DNA from: Eledone cirrhosa
Lineage: Eukaryota
Direction: 5' to 3'
Length of the DNA stretch: 64,000 bases
Assembly (NCBI GenBank): GCA_964016885.1
Contig: OZ024749.1
Span: 32,178,001 to 32,242,000, forward strand
Made by a program: the position numbers and the translations under genes. This document shows positions 1,144 to 58,376 of this stretch, in pieces; within the stretch, counting starts at the first letter, position 1, and each line of letters opens with the position of its first letter. The notes beneath the pieces are model-generated. The model saw nothing but the letters and a program-made list of their open reading frames with translations. It searched no databases and was not told where the DNA came from.

Positions 1144-1228
1144 ATATCACATAAGAAACGGAGTATCAGTGTTGCGACGAATACATTTTATTCGTCGCAA
1201 CACTGATTCTCCGTTTCTTATGTGATAT
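1144..1228. repeat. Near-perfect fold-back palindrome (~40 bp arms)
   Basis: ATATCACATAAGAAACGGAGTATCAGTGTTGCGACGAATA ... TATTCGTCGCAACACTGATTCTCCGTTTCTTATGTGATAT, flanked by (TA)n and a short unique tail. Confidence 0.95.
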
Positions 1229-1320
1229 CATACTCAGCTCTGTAAGAGCATCGAGTGCTTACGGACGCTTTAAGCATCCCACACCAATTATATATATATA
1301 TATATATATATATATATATA

Positions 1321-1776
1321 GGGCGGGTAAAATTCCCGAGTTCCATTGACGAGTTCTCTCCGGCGGTCTCTGTCCCTCATCATCACTGCCATGTCCTGCG
1401 TCTCCAAGAGACCAGTGTCTGTCCTTAGGGCATCAACATATGTCAACCTCGGTCTCCCTCTTGTAGTGTGTCCATGCAGGGGTTCCCACAGGAGCACTGA
1501 GTGCAGTGTCAACTCTGGATGTCGGTGAACATGTCCAGCTAACCTCAGTCTCCTCTGTGTCATTTTCGAGCTGACTTTTGGGAGGCTCCCGTACAGCTCT
1601 GAGTTCTTCATCCTCAGTACATACTGATTAATGTTCAGAGCCATCCTCAGCATCCTCGTTTAGCACCCATCCACCATCTGAGTGAGTTTTTTGGTCAGTG
1701 TCCAAGTCTTAGACCCGTACAGCAGCACATACTCCACTACAGCAACGAAGAGACGGATGATCAGGTCTTTACGAAG
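1321..1776 (-). mobile_element. RTE/RTEX-like LINE, 3' ORF fragment (degenerate)
   Basis: Minus-strand peptide LLYGSKTWTLT...RMLRMALNI...RRLRLAGHVHRH...LLWEP..GHTTRGRPRLTYVD, typical of the post-RT region; in-frame stop present. Confidence 0.85.
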
Positions 1777-1859
1777 ATAGATATATATATAACAAATAGT
1801 TCTGTTTATATGCCAACACAAGAGCAAGAATGACGAGTTTATTCTACTTACATGGCTTA

Positions 1860-2240
1860 AGAGGCTGTTTGCATGACGCAGCTGGCTTTCCCTCTCAACT
1901 GGAGCCAGCAGGCCTAGACTGCAGAGATGGCAATCGCCCCGACGGAATCACCCTCTTCCCATTCGAAGGAGTTAGATCCATCATCTGGGACACCAGCTAC
2001 TGCGACATGTTTTCTGCCTCCAGCTTAGTCGCTTCGGTCACAAACCCCCGCATCGCAGCCCACCTCGCAGAAGAACGTAAAATAAACAAATTTTACGTTC
2101 TTCCTCTTCGCACCGCTCGCCGTCGAGACCTCAGGCGTACTTGGACCCCGTACTGCCGAGCTCCTCTGCAAAATGGGAGCGTCGGCAGCCCGTCTGGGGA
2201 GGGAGCCCCACGAGGTTGGGTGGCTGTTGCAGTGGATTAA
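1860..2240 (+). mobile_element. Restriction-like endonuclease fragment of a CRE-like non-LTR retrotransposon
   Basis: EPAGLDCRDGNRPDGITLFPF...IIWDTSYCD...AAHLAEERKINKF matches the RPDG...WD...AE.RK..KY RLE pattern; frameshifted downstream. Confidence 0.75.
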
Positions 2241-2565
2241 AGCACCCAGTACTTGTGGTAAAGAGGTTAGTGATAGTAGGAAGGGCATCCAACCAAAGAA
2301 ATCTTGCCAAACAAAGTGTTGGGAGGACCCTTCATTTGACTGAATGACATGACAACTTCTGTTGTGCTGGTGCACTCTGTAAAACATGAGACCATATATA
2401 AGTGAGGTGCAGACCTCTATCCTGTGAAGTCCGTAGCCCCGCTTCAGTACGAACTTGGTTTATGAAGACCCATCCAACCCATGCTAGCAGGGAAAGTGAA
2501 TGTTAAATGATGATGATGATGATGATGATGATGATATAGCATGTAAACTTTATGGTCAATCTTAA

Positions 2566-2984
2566 CCCTTTAGTTACCATCCCGATCAAACCGGCTCTAG
2601 TTCTATGAAATAAAACACTCTATTTTAAAAGTCTCCAATTCAAATTAAAATCTTCCAACATAATTTTATATAAGAACCTTACATAAAGTTACTGTCTTAG
2701 TAATGAAATAATTGATAGGGTTTTCTGATTTAGGCACAATGCCAACAATTTTGGGGGTACTGGTACTTTATTTTATCGATCCCATAAGGATGAAAGGCAA
2801 AGCTAACCTCGGCGGAATTTTAACTCAGATCGTAAAGGATCGTTACCCTATGCCACTAAGCAAGGTGTCCGACGCTCTACCGATCCTGCCAATCCATACA
2901 AATGTATGTAGGTAGAGAGAGAAATAACTAATAATTTTAGTAAATCACTCAAAATTCTTCATTAGAAATGTGGTCATTAAAGGG
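2566..2984. mobile_element. piggyBac-like MITE (second family) with a nested Nin-domain SINE
   Basis: TTAA-CCCTTTAG...TAAAGGG-TTAA termini; minus-strand SINE at ~2712-2900; related degenerate copies at ~27000-27850 and ~44100-44970. Confidence 0.75.
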
Positions 2985-3792
2985 TTAAACCATTTCAGTG
3001 GTTGAATGTTATCTATGGTATATGGTGCCTTTCATAATTCAGCAGAGTTTCTTCTGACTGGATATTGTTTCTACAACCAAGTACTTGGTCGGTGAAGGGA
3101 CCAGGAATACCCCAATTAAATAAGGTACTCAATATTATTAGAGAAGAAAGATATTTATTTCATATAGAAAAGACTTCTACAGGACTAGAACTGTTTCATT
3201 CTTTTTAAATCATTAGGAATGTCCTGACAAATCCTTATTATTTCAAACAAATGAAACTGTCCTTTTTCTCGAGAAGTCTTGCACTAAATCAGCTTTGGAT
3301 TTGGATCTCATTCACACACACACACACACACACACACACACACACACACACACACACACACACACACACACACACACACATATATATATATATATATATA
3401 TATATATATTGTTATATTGTTATACTTGGGGTCATATTGTTATAATATTGCCAGAAATAATAATAGAACGCACTCACTGTTTGATTTGGGTTGGTTTTCG
3501 CTCCTGTATCATTTATATCTCCATGGTTAATTTATCTGACAATCAATGTTTATCATTGATTGACCAACGGTTAAAAATACAGATATAAATATATATATAA
3601 AGTCTATATTGTTATATTTGGGGAGGGTCATATTGTTATAATATTGCCAGAAATAATAATAGAACACACTCACTGTTTGGTTTGGGTTGGTTTTCGGCAC
3701 TCTATGTAAAAGGTAAACATAAATAACAACACAATCAGTATAGTATATGGAAGGAATATATTAGGTTAACGCTTGATATAGCAGGAAGAGGG

Positions 3793-3828
3793 TCTTAACG
3801 TTTCAGACGCTAGTCCTTCATCAGAAGA
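3793..3828 (-). ncRNA. Minimal type-I hammerhead ribozyme motif (Penelope-like)
   Basis: Minus strand: UCUU-CUGAUGA-A-GGAC-UAGC-GUCU-GAA-ACGU-U/AAGA. Intact core, 4 bp stem I, 4 bp stem II, palindromic ACGU in place of stem III. Confidence 0.7.
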
Positions 3829-56138: not shown

Positions 56139-56228
56139 TACACTCTGCTGAATTTCCTACCAAAGAATCTGTTTGAACAGTTCCGAAGAATTGCCAATTT
56201 CTATTTCCTCATGATGGGCTTGATACAG
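56139..56228 (+). CDS. ATP11: P4-ATPase (ATP11-like) exon [30 protein letters not shown]
   Basis: TCTTCTTCCAG acceptor, 90 nt phase 0/0, CAG|GTAAAG donor; diagnostic P4-ATPase N-terminal/TM1 motif; exon boundaries as in the ATP11 class. Not in the ORF track. Confidence 0.95.
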
Positions 56229-56350
56229 GTAAAGTTTCTATTCTATTCTAATACAGGTAAAGTTTCTATTCTATTCTAATATAGGTAAAGTTTCTATTCT
56301 ATTCTAATATAGGTAAAGTTTCTATTCTATTCTAATACAGGTAAAGTTTC
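56229..56350 (+). repeat. 28-bp tandem repeat x4.4 that reiterates the exon/intron junction
   Basis: GTAAAGTTTCTATTCTATTCTAATA(C/T)AG repeated. Confidence 0.95.
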
Positions 56351-56365
56351 AAGGTTATTTTAATA

Positions 56366-56731
56366 TTACAGCGTGGACTGTGTGGTTTTTTTGTCGTGAC
56401 ACCTACACGACCTCATTTATTTAGGACTGGATGTTGTGGTACCAACATAACTTAACATTGAAAGGGGTGGTGTGGATGGGGTGGGGGTAGTGGGATGGGG
56501 GTGTATTTTTGTTAGAGGCGCCTACTGACTGTAGGTTTCGCTTTGTACTTAGGCAAGGCGTGTCTTCTGTATTACTGTGTGATCTCGGTCCAGTGACATT
56601 GTCTTGGAGAGGTGTAAGTGTGTGAGGTCGGAATTTATCAAGTCGTCCTAGGTTTTTCTTGGTCTGCATACACCGTGGCTACCGTCTATTTATATCGCCC
56701 TGCACTTTTTTATACAGCTGTCGTCTTTCAT
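56366..56731 (-). mobile_element. RTE family B fragment (older copy)
   Basis: Homologous to 30600-30980. Confidence 0.88.
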
Positions 56732-56951
56732 ATATATATATATATATATATATATATATATATACACACACACATATATATATACATTTATATATACATC
56801 TATATATATATATACATGTATATACACACATATATTTATATATATATATACATATATATATATATATATACATATATATATATACATATATATATATACA
56901 TATATATATATATATATATATATATATATATATATATATATATATATATAT

Positions 56952-58146
56952 ATCATCATCATCATCATCATCAGGTTTAGCGTCCGTGTTCCACGCTTGC
57001 ATGGGTTTGGACGGGGGTTTTCCCATTTGAGGCAAGAGTGGTTGTCTTGCTCGCATAGGACTGTCTGGCGGGTTTTCTACAGTTGGATGCCCTTCCTAAC
57101 ACCAACCACATTTACAGTGTGGGGCTGGGAGGTTTTTACCGTGTTGCCTACACGGCCACATTACAGCGTGGACTGTCTGGCGGGTTTTCTACAGCTGGAT
57201 GCCCTTCCTAACACCAACCACATTTACAGTGTGGGGCTGGGAGGTTTTTACCGTGTTGCCTACACGGCCACATTTACAGCGTGGACTGTGTGTTTTTTGT
57301 CGTGACACCTACACGATCTCATTTGTTTCGGCCTGGATGTTGTGGGACCAACATAACTTTACATTGAAAGGGGCGGTGTGGGTGGGGTGGAGGTGGTGGG
57401 ACGGGGGTGTGTTTTGATAGAGGTGCCTACTGACTGTAGTAGGTTTTTACTTTGTATTTAGGTAAGGCGGGTCTTCTCTATTACTGAGTACCGCCAAAGG
57501 TCTCGGTCCAGTGACATTGTCTTGGAGAGGTGTAAGCGTGTGAGGTCGGAATTTATCAGCTCGTCCCATGTTTTTCTGGGTCTGCCTACTCCGTGGCTAC
57601 CGTCTATCTTTATTGCCCTGCACTTTGTTATACAGCTGTCGTCTTTCATGCGCATCACGTGACCGTACCAACGTAGCCTTCTCTCGAGTAAACAACATCT
57701 GATCCCTCTTATTTCTAATTTTTTCCTTAGTTCGTTTATGCTTTGCCGTTCACGTATATTACTATTGCACATCCAGCGGAGCATGCAAGCTTCGTTCCTC
57801 TCTAGTCTGCGTATATCCTCTGCACACAATGCCCAGGTCTCACTGCCATGCAGCATTGCTGTTCGTATGCAGGCATCGTATAACCTGCCTTTCATTTTTA
57901 GGGAGAACCCTCTAGCGGCTAATAGTGGTATAAGCTCTCTGAACTTTTACCATCCAGTTCTGACTCTAGCTACTGTACTTTCAGAGCACCCTCCCCCACT
58001 GCTGATTTTGTCACCCAGATAACGGAAGCTGTCCACTATTTCTATAGAACCCTCTGCGCAGTTGAAGGAGCTAGTATTTTGTGGGCACTTGCTGCTACTT
58101 ATTGCACCAGAGCACCGGCCACATGTAAAATCTATGTTCTTAGTTA
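56952..58146 (-). mobile_element. RTE family B, 5'-truncated, with duplicated 3'UTR segment
   Basis: ORF 57458-57895 nearly identical to the 16856-17779 C-terminus. Confidence 0.95.
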
Positions 58147-58246
58147 TATATATATATATATATATATATATACATATATATATACATATATATATATAAA
58201 TGAAGTAGGAAAGGTAAAGGAAAAGTAAGTGCTCTAAGTAGGCTAC

Positions 58247-58376
58247 AGTTATGTAATAAACAACATAAGATAATTATTTCATTTACCAATGGTTTCTTGA
58301 AGACAGACATAAGTATCTGTCTTCAAGAAACCATTGGTAAATGAAATAATTATCTTATGTGTTTTATTACATAACT
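58247..58376. repeat. Fold-back palindrome centred on hammerhead stem II (same family as 58577-58783)
   Basis: TTTC-TTGAAGACAGA-CATAAGTA-TCTGTCTTCAA-GAAA-CCATTGG-TA; CTGATGA absent. Confidence 0.9.

Follow-up and report, generated by a model that had tools for sequence, protein, structure and literature searches.

A stretch of 64,000 nucleotides (nt) from Eledone cirrhosa (contig OZ024749.1, positions 32,178,001 to 32,242,000; hereafter the window) harbors short palindromes that are almost certainly stub insertions of Penelope-like elements (PLEs). We infer that they are probably of Neptune type, and a known copying process most likely gave rise to them as ordinary by-products. In our preferred reading, to which we give about an even chance of being right, two separately primed complementary DNAs (cDNAs) were joined end to end at the centers of these palindromes, and stem II of the hammerhead ribozyme of these elements probably serves as a pause or annealing site only from time to time. 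An earlier interpretation of this DNA (the sequence-only reading) had placed six palindromes in a class of their own, in which cDNA copied through stem II snaps back and primes on itself. The origin of the inverted 5′ structures of PLEs and the purpose of their hammerheads are both presented as open questions (PMC8557442, PMC11167929). High-copy stubs give two tests that require sequence only: the position of the junction relative to stem II, and the location of the central spacer on the tail arm or the tail-less arm.

Head-to-head stubs with one-sided tails

The window is AT-rich DNA (GC 0.37) of animal type, with an abundance of (TA)n and in pieces of mariner and long interspersed nuclear elements (LINE). 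After microsatellite masking, 17 palindromes passed the score cut of our scan, among them, at the same coordinates, all six singled out by the sequence-only reading (1144, 6330, 16483, 32627, 34563, and 58247). Five of the 17 (2070, 8613, 20217, 33357, and 45055), in which neither the tail motif nor a hammerhead half was seen, were excluded from the counts. The other 12 have one anatomy in common: they are head-to-head pairs of 5′-truncated copies with their 3′ ends outward, bordered by (TA)n on one side and by a tail of 48–96 nt on the other. The tail ends on (TA)n in ten of the 12; nine tails contain the motif GAG[CT][AG]C[CT], and a related motif is present in another two. Conversely, seven of the eight tail-motif sites with (TA)n upstream adjoin a palindrome. 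The arms are stubs of ~40–170 nt without an open reading frame (ORF), measuring 54–71 nt in seven of the ten palindromes that bear GAAA. Their identities are 39/40 in 1144, 46/47 in 6330, 59/61 in 58247, and 50/56 in 34563, and, with one gap column each, 58/61 in 16483 and 55/64 in 32627. An assembly fold-back artefact was rejected as their source, since arms differ by 0–12 mismatches and strand-switch joints occur in raw reads. According to blastn, the elements form families A (58247, 58577), B (3170, 6330, 6974), C (48070, 51275, 59890, and positions 1–85), D (16483, 34563), and E (32627).

In a typical PLE insertion, pseudo-long terminal repeats (pLTRs) are inverted head to head, a palindrome marks their junction, and a tail may be present (Arkhipova et al. 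2013, PMC3846280; Craig et al. 2021, PMC8557442). The elements of the window resemble this unit in the 5′-truncated inverted copy, the junction palindrome, the one-sided tail, and the bias toward (TA)n. They differ from the published description in their ORF-less stub arms and in tails longer than the 30–40 bp given there. In the window, copies are single or head-to-head; the tandem head-to-tail type I hammerhead repeats described for the non-LTR retrozyme (bioRxiv 10.64898/2026.07.22.740005) are not encountered.

A hammerhead scan returned nine motifs in six loci, compared with 0.05 per shuffled window (20 shuffles). Families A and C have full motifs, as do the loci at 40917 and 3824. Complete minimal type I hammerheads, with CUGANGA and GAAA boxes, stems I–III, and a UH site, were found at 58577, 59890, 48070, and 51275, and in none of the six palindromes listed above, which have not kept CTGANGA. 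Family B retains the core boxes with a doubtful stem I, and families D and E only the 3′ half. The sequence-only reading was right in seeing mirrored hammerhead-bearing pLTR ends, except for 1144 (1144..1228), whose hammerhead is unsupported. As had been noticed, 1144 carries GCAA instead of GAAA in both arms; CTGANGA is absent, and blastn found no relative in the window. Judged by its flanks, (TA)n on the left and a 60-nt tail with GAGTGCT on the right, it is an insertion of the same kind. Searching the window with Rfam at the gathering threshold gave two tRNA-like matches only; in an E-value search, the 150 of 276 matches listed included no hammerhead family and were mostly microRNA models on microsatellites and hairpins. 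Metazoan PLEs are described as carrying minimal hammerheads in their pLTRs, some of them in pairs on opposite strands, 100–700 bp apart (Cervera and de la Pena 2014, PMC4209133). Ours share with that description the type I core boxes, the long variable stem II, and the tiny palindromic stem III. They depart from it in that five of the listed palindromes have only the 3′ half and family D a long stem III.

Mirror centers relative to stem II

Palindrome 58247 (58247..58376) is the one verified stem II-centered element among the six. At its center lies a stem II-like hairpin (58297-58326; 11-bp stem, 8-nt spacer), followed by GAAA at 58327 and lacking CTGANGA; its 48-nt tail (58199..58246, minus strand) carries the GAGCACT motif and ends in (TA)n. 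It is 84–87% identical over 55 nt to 58577 (58577..58783), which places both in one family, and its central hairpin aligns with stem II of that element, confirming the assignment made from the letters. Element 58577 contains two full minimal hammerheads around a center 51.5 nt upstream of GAAA. The native hammerhead of the family (58700..58749, plus strand) comprises CTGATGA (58700-58706), stem II (58707-58731), GAAA (58732-58735), a short stem III, the cleavage dinucleotide (58743-58744), and a 5-bp stem I. The tail of 58577 (58784..58852, plus strand; ~60–69 nt) also has the GAGCACT motif; the 8-nt spacer of the element (58677-58684) consists of upstream sequence native to the left, tail-less arm. 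In family A, 3′ ends fall at two places, near 58783 and near 58843.

The snap-back mechanism, in which a single cDNA through stem II folds back and self-primes the second strand so that the ribozyme fold sets the inversion point, finds its best case in 58247. The center of this element is 15 nt upstream of GAAA, compared with ~12.5 nt for the native stem II, and stem II of family A as a cDNA copy has a predicted fold of −6.1 kcal/mol. Arms are near-identical in general, centers cluster just upstream of GAAA, and cDNA snap-back junctions, where the cDNA 3′ end self-primes antisense synthesis as proposed by the sequence-only reading, are documented for R2 proteins (PMC11371274, PMC11204384, PMC11331408). 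There, these junctions are a minority class, arise for one protein mostly after full-length synthesis, have no tie to a hammerhead stem, and leave an antisense piece that gains no extra tail. We nevertheless consider snap-back rather unlikely, for reasons that begin with family B.

Palindrome 6330 (6330..6437) pivots off the loop. In its left arm lie the entire stem II, in reverse, and the GA of CTGATGA; its right arm begins inside stem II, and the two arms overlap by 2 nt (TC). The loop II sequences, TCCT and TGCC, have 2 mismatches in 4 nt, compared with 1 in 47 between the arms, and stem II of this family as cDNA has a predicted fold of only −0.6 kcal/mol. A 65-nt tail with GAGTACC follows (6438..6502, plus strand). 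A second palindrome of family B, absent from the sequence-only reading (6974..7084), pivots inside CTGATGA, in the core itself, 18 nt upstream of GAAA, and its tail-less left arm extends further 5′. In the third, 3170 (3156..3282), the center is upstream of the core and the arms are identical at only 37 of 49 positions. Its left arm is 91–95% like 6330 and 6974, yet 37/49 like its own right arm, which reflects either two different templates or a chance neighbor.

The two elements of family D also bear on snap-back, as they are related and their pivots lie 6 nt apart. Element 16483 (16483..16606; tail 16607-16683) has a hammerhead-like 3′ half with GAAA at 16563 and a long stem III, and mirrors over 18 bp around a 1-nt center. 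Element 34563 (34563..34677) has GAAA at 34633, a center 12.5 nt upstream of it, and a tail (34479-34562, minus strand) homologous to that of 16483. Both centers could conceivably lie inside a long loop II. In family E, 32627 (32627..32755; tail 32573-32626, minus strand) has GAAA at 32697 and a center 5 nt upstream, with no spacer and no predicted fold of the central hairpin. The hairpins of 16483 and 32627 could not be demonstrated to be native stems: no unmirrored copy of either family was found by blastn in the window, and the family D pattern gave 0 matches in metagenome contigs. Family C lies at the other extreme. Elements 59890 (59888..60149) and 48070 (48066..48410) each contain two full hammerheads, with centers 65 and 108.5 nt upstream of GAAA. 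An unmirrored copy (51249..51380, plus strand; CTGATGA at 51275) stands between (TA)n runs.

Over the ten palindromes with GAAA (1144 and 25154 lack it), the centers lie 5, 11, 12.5, 15, 18, 18.5, 27.5, 51.5, 65, and 108.5 nt upstream of this box. They look like one continuum, in which no gap sets off the second palindrome class formerly proposed. Among the seven palindromes with a native reference, one is centered on loop II, one in the 5′ strand of stem II, one in the core, and four upstream. Two of the six listed palindromes have such a reference, 58247 being on loop II and 6330 off it; 16483, 34563, 32627, and 1144 have none. Stem II fold-back across several unrelated families therefore reduces to one verified element, is contradicted by 6330, and misses 6974. 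As for the form TTTC-hairpin-GAAA reported in five palindromes, GAAA of the right arm does lie 5–18.5 nt from the center, with no CTGANGA between TTTC and GAAA; the mirror has indeed removed CUGANGA in five of the six. A random palindrome of like composition has a symmetric GAAA 3–22 nt from its center with a probability of ~0.08, and five such cases are more than chance. However, TTTC and the enclosed hairpin follow automatically from any mirror centered upstream of GAAA and are not independent of its position; the pattern alone proves little.

Six of the ten centers fall 3–20 nt upstream of GAAA, a 17-nt zone chosen after seeing the data, and none falls downstream. The probability of this clustering is 0.0002 and 0.0015 under arm-length nulls, 0.002 under a uniform null, and 0.22 under an exponential null conditioned on passing GAAA. 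The last value is what random short 5′ truncation would give, the hammerhead having no role and merely lying at a typical arm-length distance from the 3′ end. Arm length is slightly less variable than the distance to GAAA in the seven short elements (standard deviations 5.3 and 7.1), and insertion in vitro can proceed without hammerhead cleavage (PMC11167929), both in line with this explanation. We judge it unlikely all the same: the unconditioned nulls give p of 0.0002–0.002, and three arms outside the window stop at the foot of stem II, two of them possibly through one event. A fixed arm-length ruler finds no support beyond a single element: its signal is weak (r = −0.68, p = 0.10) and disappears without 32627 and 3170.

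Several further observations concern these families. Unmirrored hammerhead-bearing copies of two additional families are found in the regions of 40917 and 24477 and at 3824 (minus strand), and the tail of 3824 recurs near 26457. By eye, families A, B, and C have CAG|G at a distance of 9–47 nt upstream of their hammerhead core, at 58685, ~60003 (minus strand), in the region of 48182 and 48264, and at ~3228 (minus strand), in some cases behind a pyrimidine run; the tail arm of 58577 begins exactly at CAG|G. This resembles the 3′ splice site of the PLE 5′ intron reported to abut helix I in D. virilis (PMC4209133). The palindrome at 25154-25312 has the common anatomy with CAAA instead of GAAA, is apparently related to family E, and contains in each arm a nested hairpin that seems centered on the palindromic stem III region. 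Finally, the sequence at 32696-32755 has a 100% identical inverted 60-nt copy across a (TA)n run (32860-32919), and a second short inverted pair (32920-32940 and 33280-33300) spans the next run; possible causes are an assembly artefact or fold-back of the DNA on (TA)n.

A proposed joining of two cDNAs and the competing mechanisms

A fold-back copy never reaches beyond its template at the outer end; under snap-back, the tail arm should therefore own the spacer. We could assign the owner in seven of the 12 palindromes, leaving out five, 48070 among them. In 58577, 59890 (left arm), 6974, and 6330, it is the tail-less arm. A spacer on the arm with the longer 3′ end is thus not observed in these four elements, which argues against simple snap-back, and the mixed polarity of the whole set fits two separately primed cDNAs. 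The scatter of the centers, the longer tail-less arm in four elements, and the two loop II sequences of 6330 together favor the joining of two cDNAs.

By this mechanism, both nicked target strands would prime a short cDNA, one at each of two RNA start sites. The two cDNAs would probably be copied from the same RNA, each may stop independently, and their ends would be joined through short complementarity or bluntly. Should both stop at or just past stem II, the self-complementary strands could anneal and produce TTTC-stem II-GAAA, as in 58247. Palindromes with short distances would then be the short end of the continuum, and their loss of CUGANGA would have no function. The Poseidon PLE protein of Anolis nicks and extends both target strands, with two RNA start sites that delimit the tail and without need for hammerhead cleavage (Frangieh et al. 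2024, PMC11167929). These two start sites match the two 3′ ends of family A, and the AT-rich targets are also alike; Poseidon belongs to a different PLE clade, and 5′ junctions and inversions are not resolved in the available parts of that report. LINE-1 twin priming (PMC11702581) is likewise described as priming both target ends and end-joining inverted pieces with or without microhomology. Its pieces are adjacent and barely overlap, whereas here the two arms span one and the same sequence.

One arm of family A (58674-58846) was compared with four of the 23 listed read runs (1859, 2055, 4015, and 32 records); no RNA run contains the stretch. In the raw reads of run X21, depth drops across loop II from ~1474 to 521, a fall of ~953. 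Loose ends at loop II are carried by 664 reads among the rows listed (274 further loose-end rows exist), and in consensus they read as the native 5′ half, including CTGAGGA (agreement 0.90 and 0.96). These account for ~70% of the fall; read-through of stem II into native CUGANGA is the majority state, and position N7 and loop II vary among the reads. Unmirrored members, in the reads and at 51275, thus carry CUGANGA upstream of the hairpin, as the sequence-only reading requires. Five strand-switch joints passed the listing threshold of three reads from two starts: four, within 58685-58690, start from 58685 (22 reads), and one lies at 58730/58760 (4 reads). None is inside stem II, 58730 being its foot, and this, with the predominance of read-through, speaks against snap-back. 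The contig runs X17, X18, and X1, whose joints are not in the main table, are uninformative for centers.

At the junction of 58577, we found no overlap when comparing it with the upstream consensus of the family (agreement 0.79). Both arms carry three letters that are rare in family A, another letter being present in 433 of 442, 661 of 755, and 1125 of 1171 reads, which indicates a single source for both arms; this may be a young and rare master, or else the arms were homogenized with each other after insertion. The two stem II copies of 58577 are near-identical direct repeats on one strand and flank the inverted repeat. Replication slippage between them after insertion would remove the middle, including both CUGANGA boxes, and predicts exactly the sequence of 58247; in vitro work has established that slippage between short direct repeats can cross a hairpin (PMC4134008). 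Such a deletion seems to us quite improbable, as it leaves 6330, 6974, and the 1-nt center of 16483 unexplained, and no two alleles differing in the presence of the middle were seen in the single-arm read comparison, which could not show such a pair. Three of the four mechanisms yield an identical 58247, and this one element cannot decide between them.

Several points weigh against the joining of two cDNAs. The read evidence is limited by the probable loss of tight hairpins in the polymerase chain reaction, and restriction site-associated DNA (RAD) reads sample few loci. The centers are more clustered than expected under three of the four nulls, in the zone described above. Arms are usually near-identical, which fits the copying of one arm from the other equally well; so do the rare letters shared by the arms of 58577, which exclude two random templates. 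Polarity is not fixed either: in 3170 the spacer lies with the tail arm, as it does, on weaker grounds, in 58247 (by G-U polarity) and 34563, and of five inverted arms in the metagenome loci described below, two have a tail and three do not. The arms of loci L017 and L014 and the joint at 58730/58760 end at the foot of stem II, whose role may be more than occasional. Fold-back followed by endonuclease trimming could leave the spacer on the tail-less arm (PMC8557442), self-priming has been proposed for PLEs on the strength of their junction palindromes (PMC3846280), and R2 snap-back is an actual precedent (PMC11371274).

As a tentative possibility, stem II might be a shared landmark, where the reverse transcriptase (RT) pauses at the foot or loop. 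A dimeric enzyme would make two cDNAs on one RNA, and the self-complementary strands of the stem would allow these to anneal and to prime one another. If true, 5′ junctions throughout the PLE families would owe their form to the fold of the ribozyme and not to its cleavage, and stubs in genomes would preserve a record from which the unsolved second-strand and joining step could be read. A bias toward stem II holding genome-wide would constitute a cleavage-independent footprint for the hammerhead. That bias is unproven, and the elements as they stand are ordinary PLE debris; the weaker claim, a bias of 5′ ends toward the stem II region, remains testable. We found no report of PLE junctions mapped to stem II in a literature search that left subscription journals mostly, and supplements wholly, outside.

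Endonuclease loci and further repeats

The window contains the C-terminal piece of a PLE ORF (25600..26013, plus strand) with a cysteine-rich linker and a GIY-YIG-type endonuclease, not physically linked to any palindrome family there. This piece and its homologs have a CX2-5CxxC linker and a CCHH motif in which the C and H columns are invariant, and the homologs carry an RT (YxDD). These motifs appear to correspond to the Neptune/Nematis pattern as described in PMC8557442. Pfam gave no match for the piece or for five homologs. The sequence at 50151-50582, considered as a relative, is not related. About 270 nt behind the ORF, a minimal-hammerhead-like motif (26282..26315, plus strand) has CTGACGA, an unpaired T, a 6-bp stem II, and GAAA; its stem I of only 2–3 bp made it fail the hammerhead scan.

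Relatives of the endonuclease are encoded by 19 metagenome loci (L001-L019), found through the endonuclease peptide, so that pure stubs cannot occur among them. A hammerhead-like motif is near the match in seven of the 19 (selected by hand from 12 motif rows). In five of the eight loci of one assembly, which comes from another animal, the arm on the hammerhead side is inverted and joined to a direct arm whose start lies inside the ORF, hundreds of nt away. The inverted arms start 0 and −2 (L017, L014), 35 (L019), 66 (L015), and 111 (L018) nt upstream of GAAA, and none is centered on loop II; L017 and L014 possibly represent one single event. At L006:2781, a hammerhead variant with U3-A8 covariation (TTGACAA) lies behind a PLE endonuclease.

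Among the excluded palindromes, 20217-20294 is centered on TTAA, and its ends recur at 14783-14818 and 62576-62612; it presumably consists of abutting DNA-transposon ends (piggyBac-like) and not of a PLE. The palindromes 33357-33406 and 45055-45254 are older and diverged, and neither the tail motif nor a hammerhead half was found in them. The window also contains a repeated sequence of short interspersed nuclear element (SINE) type, whose tRNA-like heads (18197-18260 and 44645-44708) reach the Rfam gathering score.

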